Shown here in pieces: positions 7,257 through 20,240 of a DNA stretch of 37,478 nucleotides. The stretch lies in the IMG/VR virus record IMGVR_UViG_3300008085_000011, positions 1-37,478 of that record. One strand, given 5' to 3'. Numbering within the stretch: position 1 is the first letter of the stretch; each line of letters starts with the position of its first letter. The notes below the pieces were generated by a model, which saw only the letters and a program-made list of their open reading frames with translations, had not been told where the DNA came from and searched no databases. A program made the translations under genes and the position numbers. The DNA comes from a virus. Taxonomy: Duplodnaviria > Caudoviricetes.

Positions 7257-7928
7257 TTATGCAAACTGCTCCAATGTTTTTGCCAAAAAGTCACCATAGC
7301 CTTGATGATCCTCAATTATCTGCACACTCTCATTTGTCCTATAGTCTGCAAAACATGGTTCTATAAGCATTGAAGGGACGCCGACATCACTCATTGCACT
7401 CAAAAAACCTGCACCACGATCTGATGAGTTCAAGACCTTCACGCCATTATCACCACGAGCTCTGATTGAATATCTCTCAATGAAACCATCAGCAATAACT
7501 CGTGCAATTTTTTCACTCATTTTGTTTGTTAAAATCTCAAAACCTCGTGCCTCAGGAATACCCGAGGCGTTCAAGTGCAACTCAATTGCCAAGTCTGCAC
7601 CAATGTCTTTTGCATCACGAGCAAGTGAGCGCATTGCGCTTGTATAATTTACACTGTTTTGACGATAACCAATAAAAATGTTGATTTTCTCTTTATTGAT
7701 ATAAGACTTGCACGCAATGGCAACGTCCTGATTAAAACTGTACTCTGATTTGTAGCGGTCATTTTTATAGATTTCCATGCCACCATCAACTGCAGAGTGA
7801 CCAACAACTAGGAAAATTGTTTTTGCTTTTGGATTAACTGGCACAACATTGCCACTGCTTGCGTCACTATTACTCGTGCCTTTTATCTTGCTAATTATAA
7901 TATTGAAAAAACGGATCAAAAATTTCAT
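7257..7928 (-). CDS. N-acetylmuramoyl-L-alanine amidase (Amidase_3 family)
   Basis: Zinc-site motifs LVVGHS, SEY, IELHLNA and catalytic MLIEPCF. Confidence 0.92.
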   Translation of the reverse strand: MKFLIRFFNIIISKIKGTSNSDASSGNVVPVNPKAKTIFLVVGHSAVDGGMEIYKNDRYKSEYSFNQDVAIACKSYINKEKINIFIGYRQNSVNYTSAMRSLARDAKDIGADLAIELHLNASGIPEARGFEILTNKMSEKIARVIADGFIERYSIRARGDNGVKVLNSSDRGAGFLSAMSDVGVPSMLIEPCFADYRTNESVQIIEDHQGYGDFLAKTLEQFA

Positions 7929-8193
7929 GCTCCTTTCCTTTTGTTAAATAAAAATAAAGTTTTGCACAGGCTTTTGTGTCGCTCAGTGCGTTGTGGTGAT
8001 CAAGCTCAATGCCCAATGTTTTTGCCCATTCATTGAGCTTATTGTTTCGGTGCCCTAGTTTTCTTGCGGTCTCAATTGTGCTCAAGGTGCATTTGTGGTT
8101 AAACATTTTATAAATTGATTTTTCAAGTCCTGTTTTTCTAAATGTGTAATCAAAAAAGTGCCAATCAAATCCCTTTAGTGCGTGATAAATCAA
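7891..8193 (-). CDS. DEDDh 3'-5' exonuclease, C-terminal half (ExoII and ExoIII)
   Basis: YHA..FDWHF and HHNALSD motifs; in the -1 frame relative to the upstream half. Confidence 0.8.
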   Translation of the reverse strand: MIYHALKGFDWHFFDYTFRKTGLEKSIYKMFNHKCTLSTIETARKLGHRNNKLNEWAKTLGIELDHHNALSDTKACAKLYFYLTKGKEHEIFDPFFQYYN

Positions 8194-8495
8194 AAGTTCA
8201 TCCTGATTTTTTCAACTCTGAAATCATTAAGAAACCACAAGAGCTTTTTGCAAAGCTCTCGTGGCGTTTGAAATTTCTCAAGCTCTGATCTTTTGAATCC
8301 ATGAATTTCCTCTGCCTCTGTTGAGTAAAATTTATTAAACTCAGGTCTGCAGGTTTCATAAAACTCACCAATCTCAGTGCCATCAATGTCAGTGACAATC
8401 ATGGCAAGAGAAACAATATCATTTCTCATTGGATCAAATCCAGTTGTTTCAACATCAATGAAAAATCTATACTTGTTGTTAAAAAGGGATTTCAT
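8190..8495 (-). CDS. DEDDh 3'-5' exonuclease (DnaQ-like), N-terminal half (ExoI)
   Basis: IDVETTGFD and EAEEIHG motifs; likely ATG at 8495 rather than 8552. Confidence 0.8.
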   Translation of the reverse strand: MKSLFNNKYRFFIDVETTGFDPMRNDIVSLAMIVTDIDGTEIGEFYETCRPEFNKFYSTEAEEIHGFKRSELEKFQTPRELCKKLLWFLNDFRVEKIRMNF

Positions 8496-8973
8496 CAACA
8501 CTTGTCTCTTGGTCATTTTGACTTGTCGGTTTTTTTTCACGATCAACAACATTCAACTCTTTTTTGAGCTTCATGATGTCACCTTTGGCTTTTAAGCCTT
8601 TTAAAGCACTGACTGCACTCTTGTGATCAAGTGTGCCTTTCATGGCACCGCCACCAATCTCATTGATCCATTTGGCAACAGCTCTGATTTTTCCATTCTC
8701 ATCAGTGTCATGCTCAACAACAACTCTCAAATCCTTATTGACATCAAGAGCATCAGAATCAGTGACCAACTCATCAAGATCATTGCCACAAAATCCCATG
8801 ACAAATAATGCCTTGAGAGTGATCTCTCTTGCTTTTCCCTCATTCAGTGATCCAAACCAAGTCAAACCATTGTCAAGTTTAACAAAAATTTGCGGTGCCC
8901 CTGATTTTGTCTCACGCACTCCCCATGATGCAACATGAGCAATGTGATCACCTTGCTTTAAAATTTCCGACAT
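8479..8973 (-). CDS. Putative single-stranded DNA-binding protein (DUF669-like)
   Basis: ETKSG motif, acidic tail ending DEIPF, position after the Sak4-like ATPase. Confidence 0.72.
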   Translation of the reverse strand: MSEILKQGDHIAHVASWGVRETKSGAPQIFVKLDNGLTWFGSLNEGKAREITLKALFVMGFCGNDLDELVTDSDALDVNKDLRVVVEHDTDENGKIRAVAKWINEIGGGAMKGTLDHKSAVSALKGLKAKGDIMKLKKELNVVDREKKPTSQNDQETSVDEIPF

Positions 8974-10452: not shown

Positions 10453-11208
10453 GTGAGTAAAATTAAAAGAGCTTTGATCATTCCTGATTGTCATCATCCT
10501 TTTGCGGGCCCTGACTATCAATTGATGACTGAAGTCTCTCAAGAAATGGTGCTTGATGAAATTGTCATCCTTGGTGACTTTGTTGATTTTTATGATATTT
10601 CAAGTCATCCAAAATCACCGCAAATCAGTGAGAAACTTTTTGATGAGCTTCATTGTGCAGAGGAAAAGCTCAATGAGTTGAGAAAACTTTTTCCAAATGT
10701 GCCGATATTTTATTGCGAGGGAAACCACGAAAACAGAGTGAGCAGGTTTTTGCAAAACCAAGCACCTCAGTTGTTTGGGATGTTTGACCTCAAATCAATT
10801 TTAAATTTAGATAATAAACAAATATCACTTGTGCCATATGGCCCAAATCAAAAACATTTTGTACTAGGATCAAATCTGATTGCTCGACACGAACCAATTG
10901 GCGGTGGTGTTCATTGTGCTCATAGCACAGTTGTCAAAACACAAACATCAGTCATCTTTGGTCATACTCACAGAATCCAAAAATCAAACATTGTGGCACT
11001 TGGCACAGGCGAGGTTTATGAGGGCATCAGTTGCGGTTGGCTTGGTGATAAAGATCACCCTGTTATGGGTTATGTAAAAAATCACCATCAATGGCAAACA
11101 GGTTGGGCCGTTGTTGATGTCATTGAGGATTTAAACGAATTCCATGTGCAGTTGATTCATGTTAAAAATGGCAGGGCAATGGTTGATGGTGAGTTGTATT
11201 GGTTATGA
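10453..11208 (+). CDS. Calcineurin-like metallophosphoesterase
   Basis: PDCH, GDFVD, GNHE, RH and GHTH metal-binding motifs. Confidence 0.92.
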   Translation: MSKIKRALIIPDCHHPFAGPDYQLMTEVSQEMVLDEIVILGDFVDFYDISSHPKSPQISEKLFDELHCAEEKLNELRKLFPNVPIFYCEGNHENRVSRFLQNQAPQLFGMFDLKSILNLDNKQISLVPYGPNQKHFVLGSNLIARHEPIGGGVHCAHSTVVKTQTSVIFGHTHRIQKSNIVALGTGEVYEGISCGWLGDKDHPVMGYVKNHHQWQTGWAVVDVIEDLNEFHVQLIHVKNGRAMVDGELYWL

Positions 11209-11426
11209 AAAAAGGAAAACTTTATAAAATAAAATTTTTAGATCACTGCAAAGGTCATGATGAGCTTTTGACCTGTGAGGTTGTTGGTTGGATCATAAAT
11301 GCTCGAGGCAATAAAGTATTTATTTCACCTTGGCGAGTTGTTGAAAACGACAAGGAAACCATTGAGCACAATGTTGATCCGTATGCTATTGCAAAAAAAT
11401 TGATTGTTTCATCTATTGAGCTTTGA
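11199..11426 (+). CDS. Hypothetical protein
   Basis: 75-aa beta-rich ORF overlapping the phosphoesterase stop. Confidence 0.65.
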   Translation: MVMKKGKLYKIKFLDHCKGHDELLTCEVVGWIINARGNKVFISPWRVVENDKETIEHNVDPYAIAKKLIVSSIEL

Positions 11427-13854: not shown

Positions 13855-16419
13855 TCATCCTATCAAGTTTGTGCCCCAATCGGCCTCATCGTTGCCTGCA
13901 AGCTCGGTTATATCGTCAACTATATAGCCATTCTTGATTTTCTCATTTTCTTGAGCAATTGCAAAGTCACTGGCATCATCAGGAGTCACAGTTGCAACCC
14001 TGTTGAATTGATTTGCCAAATCAGAAAACTCAACCGTTGTTGTCTCACCATCTCTTTGAATTTTTGAGATAATACCAATTTTCTTGCGGTCTGCACTTGA
14101 ACCTAGTCTGGAATATAACCGATCAAGTGACAACCAAATTTTATCATTGATATTTTTGAGGGCCAAATTGAGCTTTGATGTCACTTTTACAACTGACTGC
14201 GTTAAGCTGTAAATTAGCGCATATCGCTCTGCAACCGTTGTTGCCTCGCTTGGATTGTATAAATAAAGGTCAACAACCTTTTCATTTTTTGATCCAATTA
14301 AATTATCAACAAAACTGTTTGTGTATTCTGTTACAACTGCACCTGCCTCGCCTGTAAAGCGATCGGCATCAAAATGCGCATAGTTTGCTTGGATTTTTCT
14401 GTAAATTTCACTTGTGGTTTGCACTGAAAATGAGCTTTGACCAATGAGATCATCGTCACCCAACTCATCCAAGTCTTGAGGTCGATCAGGAGTGAGCACA
14501 TCAAAGCTGATTTTAAAATCTGACCTTGATACAAGTGATCCAAAAACGCTCTTGTTAATTAAAGAGATCACCTCTCTGATAATTGGCGCCTCGGTGTCAT
14601 CATAATTTAATGGCAATTTCATGCTGATAACATAGTCAGCAATTTGGCGTGACTCATCAAAGCGATCAAGATCAATATTTTCAAAACCTGCCATTTCCAA
14701 AAGATCAAGCACTGCATCGGATGCGGTTTTAATCCATTTACCTGATGAGGTTTCTTTTCCAATGCAATCACAAACAACTTGAGAGTCATCAATGATGTAT
14801 GCGATATTTTTCTTGAGTGTATTTGTGGCAATTATATTTGCGCCATCATATTGAGTGCGCAAGATTAAGGTTGTTTCATTTTCAATCTCTAATATTTCAT
14901 ACCAATCAGTGTGGTTGATGTCATCCGACCTAATCCAATCTCTTGCTGAAAAATCCTCAACAAAGTTTGTGCCTATACCAATCACGATGCGTGATCCATT
15001 TTGAAATGTGACATTTGTGCCATTTACTTTTTTAGGATTTGTGATATTAAACTCTGCTTTTTCATCAAGTGTCAGAGTTGCTTGCGCAAGATTGCTGATT
15101 GAATAGTCACGATCAATCAAAAAACTTGTGCCATTGAAATAAAGGTCTCTCATTGGTGATTTTGTTAATTGATCACCGATGTTTGGTAAATTATCCAAAT
15201 TTTGAAATAAAATAATTGTGTCACCACTAATGCGCTTGATCCTGACTGACTCGCCATTGATTGAAACAATATCATTGACAAAAAAGTCATCAATCTGATC
15301 AACTCTCAATCTGTTTAATTGCACCGACTCAACAACTGTTGCAACAGGATCACGCAACTTGTGATCTGCAATGAAGAATTTTCTGTTTTTAAATCTGTAA
15401 GGTGTCTTTGGCTTAAGTGTTAAAGTTTGGTTGACAATCTGAGTTTCAAGCTCCTCTGATATTTCAATTTCAGTGTCTGAGATAACTTTGTTTATTTTAA
15501 AGTCAAGAGTTTCAAACTGAGTGACAATCTCAATGTTGTCATCGGGCGTGCAGTCTTTTAAGAATGTTGTGCCAATGCCTGTGATTGTTTGACTGCCAAT
15601 TGATCCTGAGACTGTGCCATCAACAACAAATCCACCAAGCACTTGATCAAGAGATTGCAAAAGTACGCCATTTGTTTGGCCATATAAAATGCGCTTGAAA
15701 TGATTTTTTGCATCCTTTGAAACAATGCCATCAGCATCAGTAAAAAGTGACAATGCAACTGGTTGGCGCAATTTATAAACAAAGTCTTTGACTCTAAATG
15801 AAACCTTTGTGTCAGTGAAACTTTTTGAGTCAATGTCACCATCAAAAACAAGTCTTGCCTCTGAAAATGGCGTGTTTGGAAACCATGAGTAAATTGTGAC
15901 TCTCTTGTTTTCCCAAAATAAGCGGTCAAATATAGGATCAAAAAAACCGCCTGTATTTACAAAAGAAATTTGCCCCTCACTTTCAAGGGAAATCCCTAAT
16001 TGCTCACTGCTATCAATCTCTTGATTAAAGGCACTTGTGTCATCAATTATGCCCTCATAATAGACTTGATCACCATCATTGCTCAAATCCCATGACAAAA
16101 CAAAAGGGCCGTTGGCAAAAAATAGCCTGTATGTTGCAGTCATAAATGACTCTTGAGGATTTGAGTCATCACTCATGCGCACATAAATTGTTTTGTTGTT
16201 ATAGTCAAAAAACCACTCACCCTGATCAAGTGCCAAGGTTTCAGCACGATCAAGAAAAACAGAGTTTGCCATGAGCTTAATCACATAGTGATCAACCTTG
16301 CGTGAGTAAATTGCACCTGTTTCATATGTCCAAAGGATGAGTTTTTGCACAGGTTCAATGTGCGCAAGCACTGCCTTTTCACTGACTGATTTCTGCGACT
16401 CATTTTGATATGTACTCAT
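13855..16419 (-). CDS. Large tail tip / hub protein
   Basis: 854 aa, acidic and beta-rich; repeated GS.T/I.GIGT.F motif; position in the tail module. Confidence 0.7.
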   Translation of the reverse strand: MSTYQNESQKSVSEKAVLAHIEPVQKLILWTYETGAIYSRKVDHYVIKLMANSVFLDRAETLALDQGEWFFDYNNKTIYVRMSDDSNPQESFMTATYRLFFANGPFVLSWDLSNDGDQVYYEGIIDDTSAFNQEIDSSEQLGISLESEGQISFVNTGGFFDPIFDRLFWENKRVTIYSWFPNTPFSEARLVFDGDIDSKSFTDTKVSFRVKDFVYKLRQPVALSLFTDADGIVSKDAKNHFKRILYGQTNGVLLQSLDQVLGGFVVDGTVSGSIGSQTITGIGTTFLKDCTPDDNIEIVTQFETLDFKINKVISDTEIEISEELETQIVNQTLTLKPKTPYRFKNRKFFIADHKLRDPVATVVESVQLNRLRVDQIDDFFVNDIVSINGESVRIKRISGDTIILFQNLDNLPNIGDQLTKSPMRDLYFNGTSFLIDRDYSISNLAQATLTLDEKAEFNITNPKKVNGTNVTFQNGSRIVIGIGTNFVEDFSARDWIRSDDINHTDWYEILEIENETTLILRTQYDGANIIATNTLKKNIAYIIDDSQVVCDCIGKETSSGKWIKTASDAVLDLLEMAGFENIDLDRFDESRQIADYVISMKLPLNYDDTEAPIIREVISLINKSVFGSLVSRSDFKISFDVLTPDRPQDLDELGDDDLIGQSSFSVQTTSEIYRKIQANYAHFDADRFTGEAGAVVTEYTNSFVDNLIGSKNEKVVDLYLYNPSEATTVAERYALIYSLTQSVVKVTSKLNLALKNINDKIWLSLDRLYSRLGSSADRKKIGIISKIQRDGETTTVEFSDLANQFNRVATVTPDDASDFAIAQENEKIKNGYIVDDITELAGNDEADWGTNLIG

Positions 16420-16996
16420 TCAACCTCGCATCCATTATTTTAAACCATAAAGGCGGGAAAAGAGAAATGATTGCACATAAAAAAAGATTGTAAGGCAATT
16501 TTGGAGTGCTCTTTTTTGCAATCATTTCTGACAATTTGCAACTCGGTGCAACATGATGAGTTGAATGAGCATCAGCATTTGCATAAGCCCATGACATCCA
16601 TGAGTGTTTATTTTCCCAAGCAATCCGAGGGAATCCCAATTTCTCAAGGCCATAGTGATGACAATAATTAAAAACTCTCATCCAAATACCAGAAAATATG
16701 CAAAAAGGCATAATTTTAAAGCCTGTTAATATGTGAAAAAGCACAAAAAATAAAAATTGAAAAACTGCACCATCCATTTCAATCCAAATGTTGATCAGGA
16801 TGTTTTTATAAACACTCTCACCCTTTGTCGGATGGCCAAAATCATTTGGAGTGTTTGCAACTGCGTGATGCAATTTGTGCAACTCATTAAATCTAAAAAT
16901 AAAAAAAGGTGCAAATAGATAGTCAACTTTAAATCCACGATGATGCAAATGATGCAACCATGCAAGCAGAGGTGAAAATAAACTAAATACGAGCAT
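16400..16996 (-). CDS. AlkB-like membrane di-iron oxygenase / fatty acid desaturase family protein (N-terminally short)
   Basis: His boxes HHLHHR, HKLHH, NYCHHYGL, HSTHH, plus TPND...GESVY, HSW and PPLWFKIMDARL, in the order seen in alkane 1-monooxygenases. Confidence 0.82.
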   Translation of the reverse strand: MLVFSLFSPLLAWLHHLHHRGFKVDYLFAPFFIFRFNELHKLHHAVANTPNDFGHPTKGESVYKNILINIWIEMDGAVFQFLFFVLFHILTGFKIMPFCIFSGIWMRVFNYCHHYGLEKLGFPRIAWENKHSWMSWAYANADAHSTHHVAPSCKLSEMIAKKSTPKLPYNLFLCAIISLFPPLWFKIMDARLNEYISK

Positions 16997-18053
16997 TTAA
17001 AAGCTCAAGAATTTTTACTCTGCACTCACTCCAAATTGTTGCATCAGTGAGCTCTTTATTTTTTAAAAATGACCACAATTGCAATCTGCCACTATAGTCA
17101 ATGATGGCGGGCAATCCAAATGAGAAATGAGCACTGAGTGCATCGAGCTCTGACATCGTCAAAATCTCTGAGAATTTAACAAGTGAACAAATAAACCATT
17201 TTGCATTTTTCCCCATATTGATCTCAGGCATTGCGGTCATATTGTTTGGATCAATAATTGCTTTATAAACGTCAACACTTGAAAATCTCTCATCAGCATC
17301 AGATTGCGACCAAGGCACAACGCCTTGATCTGCATCACTCATTGTTTTGCAATCAATTCCAAGACCACCATCAAAAAATGTAAACTTTACACCTTGCCAA
17401 GTTGTGACAAAAAAATCATCAGGTGACTTAATCTTTAGTGGTGCCGTTGATTTAAAGTTATTTATTGACGTTGTGATTGTTGATCCCTTTGGCACAACTG
17501 TATTTTCAACAATGGCATCACCTGAAACAATAGAGTCACAACATAATGATGAGTTTTTTAAAACTGCATTTTCTGAAACCTTTGCTGATCCTGTTATTGA
17601 TGAGTTTTCAATTTGAGCACTCCCCATGACTCTTGAGTTTCCAGTGATGTGAGCATTTTTCAAGGATGAGTTTTCTTTCACATCACTATAGTCATAAATG
17701 TATGAATCAATTATTGTCACACTGCCATTAATTCTTGAAAATCCACTCACAATAGACTTGCCTAAAATATTAGATAAACCGCCAACTGTTGCAAATCCCA
17801 AAACCTCAGAATCATCACCAATCATTGCATTGTCAAAAACCTCTGAGTTGTTGCAAATACCTGCATTGCCAAGCACCCTTGCCTGATCCATGGCCTTTGC
17901 ATTGTCATAAACAAAGCAACTGCCATCATGAGAGAGGTTTGACTCTGACTCAATAAAGCCACCAAGTAAATTGTCAAACAATCTCTTAATGCGTCTTAAT
18001 GTCTTGCCTTTATAAATCAGTGTTTCATCGGTTAAAATATATTTCATTTTCAA
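16983..18053 (-). CDS. Left-handed beta-helix (hexapeptide repeat) protein with unknown C-terminal domain
   Basis: GGFIESESNL...VYDNA phage motif followed by V.GNA/V.GSA hexapeptides. Confidence 0.75.
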   Translation of the reverse strand: MKMKYILTDETLIYKGKTLRRIKRLFDNLLGGFIESESNLSHDGSCFVYDNAKAMDQARVLGNAGICNNSEVFDNAMIGDDSEVLGFATVGGLSNILGKSIVSGFSRINGSVTIIDSYIYDYSDVKENSSLKNAHITGNSRVMGSAQIENSSITGSAKVSENAVLKNSSLCCDSIVSGDAIVENTVVPKGSTITTSINNFKSTAPLKIKSPDDFFVTTWQGVKFTFFDGGLGIDCKTMSDADQGVVPWSQSDADERFSSVDVYKAIIDPNNMTAMPEINMGKNAKWFICSLVKFSEILTMSELDALSAHFSFGLPAIIDYSGRLQLWSFLKNKELTDATIWSECRVKILELLNARI

Positions 18054-18059
18054 TCCTAT

Positions 18060-19277
18060 TTAAAAATTTGCAAATGATCCTGCGAGGCCATTTGATCCAC
18101 CTGTTGGCATGATGGTATTTGCCTGCACATAAACGTCAGACCTTATTTGCACGCCCTGTTCACCGCCCTCAATAACATTTGGATTTGGAGTACCACCACG
18201 AGCACCGCCACCAACTTGCCATGATCCAGAAAAGTTATTTGTTGTTGATTTTAATCTGACAAAACCGCCATTTCCACCTGCACCACCGCCACCTGCTAAA
18301 AAGTTGTCATAGTTTTGACCAGTGTAAAAACCTATCCTGTCGGAAATGTCAGTGAGAGGTGATCCTGGATCAACAAATGTTGCCTGTCTGCGACCATATA
18401 GCCTATTTGAGTTAAAATTAAAACCCCAACCGCCACGAGTTGCATTGCCACCATTAAAATTAAAAGTACCTGTGCCACTTAAAATTGAAACATAGAAAAC
18501 GCAAGCCTGACCATGTCTGCCTCGAAAACCACCGCCTGCACTAAATAAACTCACGCCACCTTTGCCTTGCAACAAAACTGCAGAGTCACCACCATTTTCA
18601 CCATAATTAACTGCACCACGAGACCAACCCTGCGCATATACTTTTTGTTGCATTGAGTTTGAATTACTGTCAAATGAGCAAAGCCCCTCAGGAATAGCAC
18701 CTGTGGGATTATTGTCATAAACCCTACCGATGCCACCATTTGCGCCTCTTGAAAATATTGCATCATCACACCCTCTAAATTGAGGTGAGCACGATGGTGA
18801 GTTCATGCAAGCACTAATTGACGACCTTACCTCAAATGATGCACCACCATTGCCAAAAGCAGGTGATCCCTCTGCGGGCGTTCCTGATGATGGCACGCAG
18901 GATGTTGTTAATCTGCCTGCCCTGCCACCAGCCTGTTGACTTTGTGAATAACTAAAATTATCACCTGCAACGGTGATAATTGAATCACTCATACCTGCGT
19001 GCTCACCTTTATCACCATAAAATGTGCCATCATTTTGCAAAGACAATGCGCCAAATGTAAAAATTTGACCGCCATTTGTAGGCAACCTTAAAATGCCACC
19101 TGCTTGGATGATCACGTTGTTGTAGTCGTAAAGGTTTCCCGCCTTAACTGGCAAGGTTATGTCCTGACCATTTAAAACTGTGAGATCACCATCAGCACCT
19201 GTAAAACCTTGGAAAAACCCACCACCAGATTTTTTACCGAGAAATGAAAAAGGCTGTGTTTTATGTCCAAAGCTCAT
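18060..19277 (-). CDS. Glycine-rich tail fibre / receptor-binding protein
   Basis: Many GG-rich motifs (AGGGGAGGNGG); follows a coiled-coil fibre gene. Confidence 0.7.
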   Translation of the reverse strand: MSFGHKTQPFSFLGKKSGGGFFQGFTGADGDLTVLNGQDITLPVKAGNLYDYNNVIIQAGGILRLPTNGGQIFTFGALSLQNDGTFYGDKGEHAGMSDSIITVAGDNFSYSQSQQAGGRAGRLTTSCVPSSGTPAEGSPAFGNGGASFEVRSSISACMNSPSCSPQFRGCDDAIFSRGANGGIGRVYDNNPTGAIPEGLCSFDSNSNSMQQKVYAQGWSRGAVNYGENGGDSAVLLQGKGGVSLFSAGGGFRGRHGQACVFYVSILSGTGTFNFNGGNATRGGWGFNFNSNRLYGRRQATFVDPGSPLTDISDRIGFYTGQNYDNFLAGGGGAGGNGGFVRLKSTTNNFSGSWQVGGGARGGTPNPNVIEGGEQGVQIRSDVYVQANTIMPTGGSNGLAGSFANF

Positions 19278-20240
19278 TTATGCAATCCCGTCAACTGCGT
19301 TGGCAATAACACTTGCACCAACTTTTATAAATGTCCAAATTGTTCTTGTGTTTGCAGTCACTGTTGTCACTGCAGTTGCTGATGGCCATAGAACACCAAC
19401 AGGAAAATCAATATCAACATCAGCACCTGAGTTGTTGAATATTGAGACAATTATTGTCTTGCCATCAGAATCATTTGAAAAAGTAAATATCTCATTTGTT
19501 GAGACTTGTTTTGAGAAAATATTTCCAAGAGACCAATCAACGTCTTGTGCAGAAATGACTTGTGTTGCTTTAACTGCCTCAAGATCATTAAGTCTGTTAT
19601 TTTGAGTTGTTTGCTCACTCTGCAAATTGCTGATTGCAGTTGCGTTGTTGCCAATGTTTGTGTTTTGAGTTGTTTGCTCTGTTTGCAAATCACCAATGGC
19701 AATTGCATTGTTTCCAATGTTTGTGTTTTGAGTTGTTTGCTCACCCTGAATATTTGAAACATCAGTTTCAAGATCATCAAGCCTGCCATTTTGAATTGTT
19801 TGATCAGTGCCAATTGTGCCAATGTTTGTGACAATGTTATCAATCTGATCTTGCAAACCTAAAATTGCGCTGTCATAGTCTTGAGAAAATTCAACCCAAA
19901 TGGCACTACCGACTGTGCTATCTTTGCAAATCCAAAAGCGTGAATCATACTCAAAGATTGATCCAACTGAAAAACCAAGTGACTCATCATCATTGATTGT
20001 GGGCACTGCTAAGTTGCCAAATGAGTTGAGCTCTGCCTCATTTTGTTTCCAAGTTGATCCATCATGAAAAACTATATTATTTAATGTTGTGTTGAAATAA
20101 ATTGATCCCTTTGCGCCTGCACCATTAACTGATTCATATGAGGCATTGTCAGCAAATTGAGCAAGAGCACTTGCGCCTTGAACTGTTGGCACTGTTGCGC
20201 TTGTTTGCGTGTCTGCAAAGTCTAATATTCTATTGCTCAT
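19278..20240 (-). CDS. Tail fibre / collar protein with coiled-coil repeats
   Basis: GSIYFNTT...W anchor motif, PT.NDD..GFSVGS motif and 21-aa repeats. Confidence 0.72.
   Translation of the reverse strand: MSNRILDFADTQTSATVPTVQGASALAQFADNASYESVNGAGAKGSIYFNTTLNNIVFHDGSTWKQNEAELNSFGNLAVPTINDDESLGFSVGSIFEYDSRFWICKDSTVGSAIWVEFSQDYDSAILGLQDQIDNIVTNIGTIGTDQTIQNGRLDDLETDVSNIQGEQTTQNTNIGNNAIAIGDLQTEQTTQNTNIGNNATAISNLQSEQTTQNNRLNDLEAVKATQVISAQDVDWSLGNIFSKQVSTNEIFTFSNDSDGKTIIVSIFNNSGADVDIDFPVGVLWPSATAVTTVTANTRTIWTFIKVGASVIANAVDGIA
19600..19742. repeat. 63-bp period tandem repeat within the fibre gene
   Basis: TTTTGAGTTGTTTGCTC at 19600, 19663 and 19726, encoding EQTTQN three times. Confidence 0.9.

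Follow-up and report, generated by a model that had tools for sequence, protein, structure and literature searches.

A half-size AlkB-like protein encoded behind an adhesin-like gene in a phage tail operon

Why should a tailed phage keep what looks like half of an alkane monooxygenase among its tail genes? The question is posed by a 198-residue open reading frame (ORF; protein P0001, hereafter mini-AlkB) with an ATG start, located at 16400..16996 on the minus strand of IMGVR_UViG_3300008085_000011, a phage record of 37.5 kb that is complete and bounded by direct terminal repeats; this whole stretch is referred to here as the window. Its minus strand also carries the genes for terminase, capsid, tail tube and tape measure. 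A first-pass annotation of this DNA had proposed a minimal AlkB-like di-iron oxygenase that modifies a virion component, a host lipid or the receptor. Our preferred answer, to which we assign a probability of about 0.35, is that mini-AlkB is an AlkB-derived membrane di-iron hydroxylase or desaturase that would oxidize the acyl chain of a host lipid, in an activity tied to the adjacent adhesin-like protein.

Ancestry, fold and missing helices

Sequence and structure point to the same nearest relative, the AlkB of Fontimonas thermophila (FtAlkB; PDB codes 8sbb and 8f6t; PF00487). FtAlkB is the best match of mini-AlkB in a phmmer search of the PDB (E = 3.9e-10); a KtrA match in the same search was short and local, and was rejected. 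The AlphaFold2 model has a predicted local distance difference test score (pLDDT) of 86.9 and a predicted template-modelling score (pTM) of 0.86 from an AlkB-rich input alignment; the Atlas's own model also reaches a pTM of 0.84. FtAlkB is the best Foldseek match of the model (TMq 0.73-0.77) and ranks first among 48,161 chains (Z = 14.6, root-mean-square deviation (rmsd) 3.1, all 198 residues aligned to residues 133-375 of the chain), with Z from 14.6 to 15.5 across the fold comparisons. The second-best structural match is the Chlamydomonas Orf2971/Ycf2-FtsHi motor subunit (PDB 8xks_K and 8xqw_M, Z = 9.0 and 7.5; at Z = 9.0 the rmsd is 4.1 over 185 aligned residues). SCD1 gives a Z of 4.2 and an rmsd of 5.7, and the nearest sequences are AlkB-like rather than of the DesC/SCD type. 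Both kinds of comparison place the descent of mini-AlkB in AlkB and not in DesC. The Pfam FA_desaturase profile (PF00487), a check that the first-pass annotation had called for, matches mini-AlkB at E = 1e-6 and 29.1 bits, 0.6 below the cut-off of 29.7, and scores two groups of short relatives introduced below above it (clade A 36-50 bits, clade B 52 bits). No match to mini-AlkB was found in NCBIfam or PHROG, nor in BFVD at E 0.001.

The motifs quoted in the first-pass annotation are all there, and so are its nine histidine positions (H15, H19, H40, H43, H44, H114, H144, H147 and H148) and occupy invariant or near-invariant columns of a 97-sequence AlkB-like alignment. In full-length relatives 24 columns are conserved to 90% or more; P0001 retains 20 of them, versus 18 of 112 variable columns, a figure inflated by the choice of these relatives for their likeness to P0001. 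FtAlkB has the same nine histidines in four motifs in the same order, as well as the HYG motif, the PPLW..MD tail and the core fold. There are differences within the motifs. In His box 1 (H15-H19, HHLHH; 16940..16954, minus strand, as for all features below unless stated) the conserved E16 is His, and His box 2 (H40-H44; 16865..16879) reads HX2HH as in clade B, instead of the HX3HH of clade A and most full-length AlkB. In the HYG motif (N110-G116; 16649..16669), H114 stands at the ligand position and H113 at that of the FtAlkB glutamate numbered E281 or E271. His box 3 (H144-H148, HSTHH; 16553..16567) was assigned by sequence comparison. The HSW motif had been misplaced: that of AlkB aligns to I125-A126-W127 and not to the HSW at 131-133. 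The replacement of the HYG glutamate by His, also noted earlier, stands, but the glutamate itself is not invariant: of 110 full-length relatives 56 have E and 41 have Q. Among the short forms this position is His only in the window lineage, Q in clade A and S in clade B. Judged from these alignments the Glu-to-His change is no hallmark of the family, and with E in only 56 of 110 relatives the glutamate is a weak criterion.

What mini-AlkB lacks is the N-terminal part of the membrane domain, as the first-pass annotation had stated. FtAlkB has about 380 residues, and the model, which spans residues 133-375 of 8sbb, is without transmembrane helices (TM) 1-3 and part of TM4. It comprises the di-iron His core, a partial TM4, TM5-TM6 and a C-terminal cap; the TM5-TM6 hairpin is predicted at 16655..16813 (helices 62-91 and 96-114). 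Only 15 residues precede the first His, compared with 51-62 in clade A and a median of 119 in 109 full-length relatives, and the linkers between the His motifs (25/70/30) are every one shorter than the full-length medians (31/100/39). An N-terminal extension or hidden N-terminal half was rejected, as a stop lies directly 5' of the ATG and the other frames hold no AlkB-like text. Separate ORFs for TM1-2 or TM1-3 in the window, L108 and L109 were likewise rejected (best scores 6-11 bits, non-adjacent, mostly off-strand or internal).

These helices matter for substrate access. The tunnel entrance of FtAlkB is described between TM1 and TM2 (PMC10113152), and its vestibule as formed by TM2, TM4 and TM6, with the chain length set by W62 (PMC10110569). 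As TM1-3 are absent, a closed alkane tunnel would be unable to form. Mini-AlkB has the His boxes, membrane hairpin and profile match of the FADS-like PF00487 superfamily, but not the six TM helices, the TM1-TM2 tunnel entrance and the TM2 length gate of AlkB. On sequence criteria it resembles a membrane di-iron enzyme of the FADS superfamily and, lacking the six-helix tunnel, is better not classed with the alkane monooxygenases.

Short relatives and an apparent split AlkB

The closest kin of the window protein are near-identical copies only, followed by proteins of 27-40% identity; a search returned 657 matches at E 0.001, and the 150 matches listed are mostly full-length AlkB-like proteins in that identity range. 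Shorter relatives came from two directions. L003 encodes a tail protein 59% identical to that of the window and, at the same place, a 270-residue AlkB-like protein. Profile searches gave seven such sequences of 268-276 residues (clade A), 26-30% identical to the window protein, which carries several internal deletions relative to them. Independently of AlkB likeness, a scan with a fibre-end domain (described below) gave 11 loci, one of which, L103, holds a 205-residue AlkB-like gene in the corresponding slot. Relatives of the L103 gene (12 matches among 29 candidates) form clade B. Eleven have 190-213 residues; a 127-residue fragment was left out, and with the query this gives 12 aligned rows, 54-84% identical to the first row. 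All nine His are invariant in clade B, about 17 residues precede the first (four rows start at an inner Met), and the best PDB match is again AlkB (profile E = 2.8e-6; fold TMq 0.64, E = 0.05).

By a simple counting method, the nonsynonymous and synonymous divergences (dN and dS) are 0.24 and 1.8 for the clade-B pair L103/L109; for the clade-A pairs L008/L104 and L003/L005 dN is 0.18 and 0.24, with dS saturated. These substitution patterns demonstrate purifying selection on clades A and B. The minimal form thus appears to be maintained by selection, as the first-pass annotation supposed, and because clade B repeats the design of about 200 residues with nine invariant His, this design reads as stable and not as an accident of one genome. 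Since the window copy has no diverged orthologue, the case for selection on it is drawn from its retained motifs and from the clade-B parallel.

A single origin of the short AlkBs is likely from the trees. In a careful 35-row tree, nine short proteins are split from 26 full-length ones with a support of 91/85, an unstarred value on long branches, and a quick 93-row tree has the same split with an SH-aLRT of 71. Most full-length rows carry no taxonomy, and the label "cellular" is an assumption for them. A scan of cellular genome contigs found 11 AlkB-like loci, all of 336-815 residues, and the clade-B profile gave only weak matches in 131 genomes (open frames of 226-418 residues). Among 50,697 cultured phage records, P0045 and the 854-residue tail protein of the window had no match, and P0194 matched two only, both annotated alkB1 (E = 0.03). 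The GenBank records CAKLQH020000011.1 and CAKLQF020000009.1 (Acinetobacter phage MD-2021a) carry an annotated alkB1 and may be host contigs. At the other extreme of size, the AlkB-like ORFs of L028, L034, L037, L038, L061, L069, L076, L079 and L091-L093 have 798-873 residues, with Q at the HYG glutamate position, and are probably fusions with electron-transfer domains.

In clade A part of the missing N-terminus may be encoded separately. The apparent gaps of 143-157 nucleotides before the core gene are coding: in all four clade-A loci a hydrophobic ORF of 51-54 residues lies there and overlaps both neighbours. Its nonsynonymous and synonymous differences (pN/pS of 0.11/0.87 and 0.27/0.69) indicate purifying selection on it. 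On the AlkB TM1-2 profile only 2, 2, 1 and 23 of 500 shuffles match the real score, as compared with 46-149 on TM3-4 and 21-298 on TM5-6, and the ORF ranks first among short ORFs in three of the four loci and second in the fourth. In hhalign it falls on AlkB columns 7-40 (E = 0.0037, with a probability of only 9%). We consider it probable, from two independent pairs only, that this ORF corresponds to TM1-2 of AlkB. No TM1-2-like ORF adjoins the window gene or two clade-B genes.

A recurrent slot behind the adhesin-like gene

Mini-AlkB overlaps both of its neighbours, by 14 nucleotides with 16983-18053 and by 20 with 13855-16419, as had been annotated; the overlapping frames suggest coupled late translation. 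A promoter of its own was rejected, as the counts (33 versus 25.2, standard deviation 5.2) are near chance. At the junction we also note a weak five-pair hairpin over the putative ribosome site and the start codon (16990-17007), at chance-level frequency, and a TTTAAAT heptamer in the frame of the upstream gene; either could bear on translational coupling.

Upstream of mini-AlkB, in order of transcription, lie three genes. A fibre-like protein of 320 residues (19278..20240) ends in a conserved 95-residue domain with a D-I/V-D-W motif (19281-19565), the fibre-end domain. It is followed by a Gly-rich protein of 405 residues (18060..19277), likely a fibre-tip adhesin from its position and make-up, and by a variable gene for 356 residues (16983..18053), predicted as a left-handed beta-helix (phrog_7964/5070) with a C-terminal domain without known family. 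The gene belongs to the tail operon, but its immediate upstream neighbour is the beta-helix gene and not a fibre gene; the fibre-like and Gly-rich genes stand further up. The Gly-rich and fibre-end profiles have no match in the PDB, and a Gly-rich scan of viral contigs gave no confirmed case.

The same order, namely fibre-like gene, Gly-rich gene, variable gene and short AlkB, is found in seven of seven phage types (window, L003, L005/6, L007/8, L103, L104 and L109), so that the short homologues sought beside fibre genes in other phages do exist, in six other types and in both clades. This count covers types with available DNA and leaves out P0152, P0157, P0158 and 10 of the 12 clade-B rows, several of which are on contigs of 41-89 kb; three of the seven types (L005/6, L007/8 and L109) were found via AlkB likeness alone. 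The gene that follows is not fixed: in the window it encodes an 854-residue tail protein (13855..16419), elsewhere proteins of 933 or 697 residues, and in L008, L103 and L104 small lysis-like genes. The tail protein gene of L003 is spread over three ORFs (L003:7998-10558) on a contig with ambiguous bases, probably an assembly error.

The variable gene differs in kind. In L003 (6337-7032) and L005 (7151-7849) it resembles arylamine N-acetyltransferase (NAT-like). In L103 (7332-7709), L104 (7338-7709), L008 (539-910) and L109 (7625-8017) it encodes a protein of 123-130 residues without Pfam match, a family that sits between the Gly-rich gene and short AlkB genes of both clades. The C-terminal domain of the window's slot protein was considered as a homologue of this family and rejected, as no relation was detected.

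Presence of the short AlkB varies between kin. Of the 11 fibre-end loci, one belongs to the same type as the window, two stop short of the slot, three carry a short AlkB and five lack it; whole-record searches of these five (four of them near complete) gave no PF00487 match. The short AlkB is an accessory gene. In L103 and L104, two phages put at 96-100% identity otherwise, the fibre-end protein is 100% identical and the downstream genes are 88-97% identical, compared with 63% for the Gly-rich protein, 29% for the small slot protein and 26% for the AlkB-like protein, and within the Gly-rich protein the first quarter is 86% identical, with a drop to about 59% beyond it. From these identities, the tip, slot gene and AlkB-like gene have been swapped as one block between the two kin.

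The fibre-end domain also gives a hint of the host. It occurs in 7 of 131 genomes from the phylum of an Oligoflexales genome and in none of 132 sampled genomes from the phylum of a Polyangiaceae genome. In these loci (L110-L124, up to six per genome) it closes long fibre-like proteins in most cases, a secreted-looking tip-like gene often comes next (of several kinds, one Gly-rich), and the L116 match lies within a virus-like stretch. The domain also has a weak match to a Limnohabitans phage. This distribution points weakly to a Bdellovibrionota-type host.

Possible roles of the short AlkB

In the activity we propose, mini-AlkB would probably be expressed late, together with the tail genes, and probably reside in the inner membrane, where it would bind iron and act on lipid. 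Without TM1-2, which hold the entrance and length gate of AlkB, the pocket would lie open at its side to a chain anchored on a head group. An open groove would expose the di-iron site to the bilayer, an arrangement suited to chains attached to a lipid or carrier. The Glu271 of FtAlkB is reported to ligate Fe2 and may donate a proton (PMC10113152). H113 at this place may create a ten-His centre in the window lineage, which would favour hydroxylation; the sphingolipid alpha-hydroxylase Scs7p has an extra His at the same place (PMC10110569). Scs7p differs in giving no sequence or fold match to mini-AlkB among the matches listed, and among the short forms such a His is limited to the window lineage. 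AlkB systems use the rubredoxin AlkG. As first reported, the phage has none: the complete window genome has no rubredoxin match (PF00301), and no ferredoxin is found among 47 scanned window ORFs, so the electrons would come from the host, likely via its rubredoxin or ferredoxin. The short AlkB proteins are net basic (+6 to +21), and in FtAlkB rubredoxin is described to dock on a basic surface (PMC10113152).

The product would alter an envelope feature used by this type of adhesin, and sister phages might then no longer be trapped by the infected cell or its debris. A parallel in gene arrangement is T5, in which llp is adjacent to and downstream of the receptor-binding gene pb5 (PMC9586334), a host-envelope-acting gene behind a receptor-binding gene; the T5 product Llp is a small receptor-binding lipoprotein, and the likeness ends with the arrangement. 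A broader scenario, which we hold tentatively and regard as doubtful in its entirety, is that a single captured alkB first had TM1-2 split off as a separate peptide (clade A) and then lost TM1-3 altogether (clade B and window), giving an open-pocket enzyme of roughly 200 residues that travels with an adhesin and tailors its lipid receptor or an acyl group of the adhesin. It would be an undescribed module with the smallest natural AlkB core.

Several observations weigh against the proposed activity. The window protein has lost E16, kept in 108 of 110 full-length AlkB, and the HSW His, and has Ala for L318. No kin of its lineage other than near-identical ones were found, and its branch is long (2.2). 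Of the catalytic triad, the NAT-like gene of L005 retains the Cys but neither the His nor the Asp, and that of L003 looks alike by eye; to judge from these sequences, enzyme folds in the slot can be non-catalytic. The short AlkB is missing in five of eight readable relatives. The co-swap fits functional linkage but may also reflect plain physical linkage in a recombination hotspot, and the distal non-Gly identity of tips within clade B (47-54%) exceeds that between clades B and A (33-50%) by a modest gap. Finally, a change in an acyl chain is buried in the membrane, and adhesin binding need not be affected by it.

Two other roles are possible, though each is improbable. Mini-AlkB may tailor an acyl chain, on acyl carrier protein, coenzyme A or a lipid, destined for the fibre tip of the virion, the block then being an adhesin with its maturation enzymes. 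The constant slot, the co-swap and the translational overlaps agree with this, as do the acyltransferase-type folds of the slot gene, which is NAT-like in L003 and L005 and a beta-helix in the window. Against it stand the incomplete triad of L005, the 123-130-residue protein of no known family in the slot of L008, L103, L104 and L109, and four near-complete phages that have the fibre-end domain and no desaturase-family match. With a similarly low chance, mini-AlkB may be an active lipid desaturase or hydroxylase that tunes the bulk membrane late in infection, its position marking a gene-exchange hotspot. The models here would be the cyanophage vFAD-I/II, phage-encoded membrane di-iron His-box enzymes that take electrons from a host donor and show delta-9 desaturase activity (PMC5776448; no word of the main text begins with "tail"). 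The accessory nature of the gene and its place before small lysis-like genes in three phages are consistent with such a role, but the slot is constant in all seven phage types despite wholly different downstream genes, and the vFADs are DesC-like, unlike the AlkB-derived mini-AlkB (Z = 4.2 for SCD1 versus 14.6 for AlkB).

A non-catalytic role, in which a metal-binding scaffold or chaperone in the membrane would help to assemble the fibre tip, is less probable. The lost tunnel, the extra His at 16, 18 and 113 and the degenerate NAT-like neighbour would fit, as would the structural match to the Orf2971/Ycf2-FtsHi subunit, which may be a co-opted desaturase-like fold; however, a scaffold would hardly need the nine ligand His that are kept in three deep lineages. 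Decay of the window copy, as a remnant of a captured alkB or of a clade-A gene, is also quite improbable; the first-pass annotation had named a decaying piece of a host gene as a refutation. The singleton lineage, long branch, low identity to clade A and internal deletions would agree with decay, but the frame is open and overlaps genes at both ends, the G+C content at third codon positions (0.30) is within the range of 17 other genes (0.25-0.39), the conserved columns and a compact, confident model are retained, and clade B holds the same minimal design under purifying selection. Support of host hydrocarbon catabolism, the usual reading of viral alkB, is very unlikely: AlkB is the closest family, the source label of the clade-A protein P0152 is "alkane 1-monooxygenase" and 275 viral alkB are included among hydrocarbon-degradation genes in a preprint (bioRxiv 10.64898/2025.12.08.692962), but TM1-3 are absent with no partner ORF in the window, there is no rubredoxin, the gene lies in a tail operon and L318 is Ala.

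That preprint also describes alkB-like genes on IMG/VR contigs, largely of one viral clade, and reads them as alkane catabolism genes mainly of Schizomimiviridae, Autographiviridae and Mesomimiviridae; its main text does not contain "tail", "truncated" or "histidine". In the non-subscription literature searched, we found no description of a short, split or tail- or adhesin-linked phage AlkB. Some of the viral alkB attributed to hydrocarbon degradation may encode tail-linked enzymes that have no alkane tunnel. Natural split and half-size AlkBs would reveal which parts of this C-H oxidation enzyme, itself difficult to study, can be dispensed with. Carrying Glu, Gln, Ser or His at the debated E281 site, they would serve as small scaffolds for structural and mechanistic work, and they would also give a handle on why lipid-tailoring genes follow phage fibre adhesin genes.

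Two further features of the window were observed. At 7891-8552, overlapping ORFs of 120 and 100 residues correspond to the N-terminal and the C-terminal part of a single exonuclease family (phrog_192, RNase_T), which identifies them by sequence as a split or frameshifted DnaQ-like gene. On the plus strand, a metallophosphoesterase and a 75-residue ORF (10453-11426) lie between the late and replication blocks, and both have counterparts in L003.

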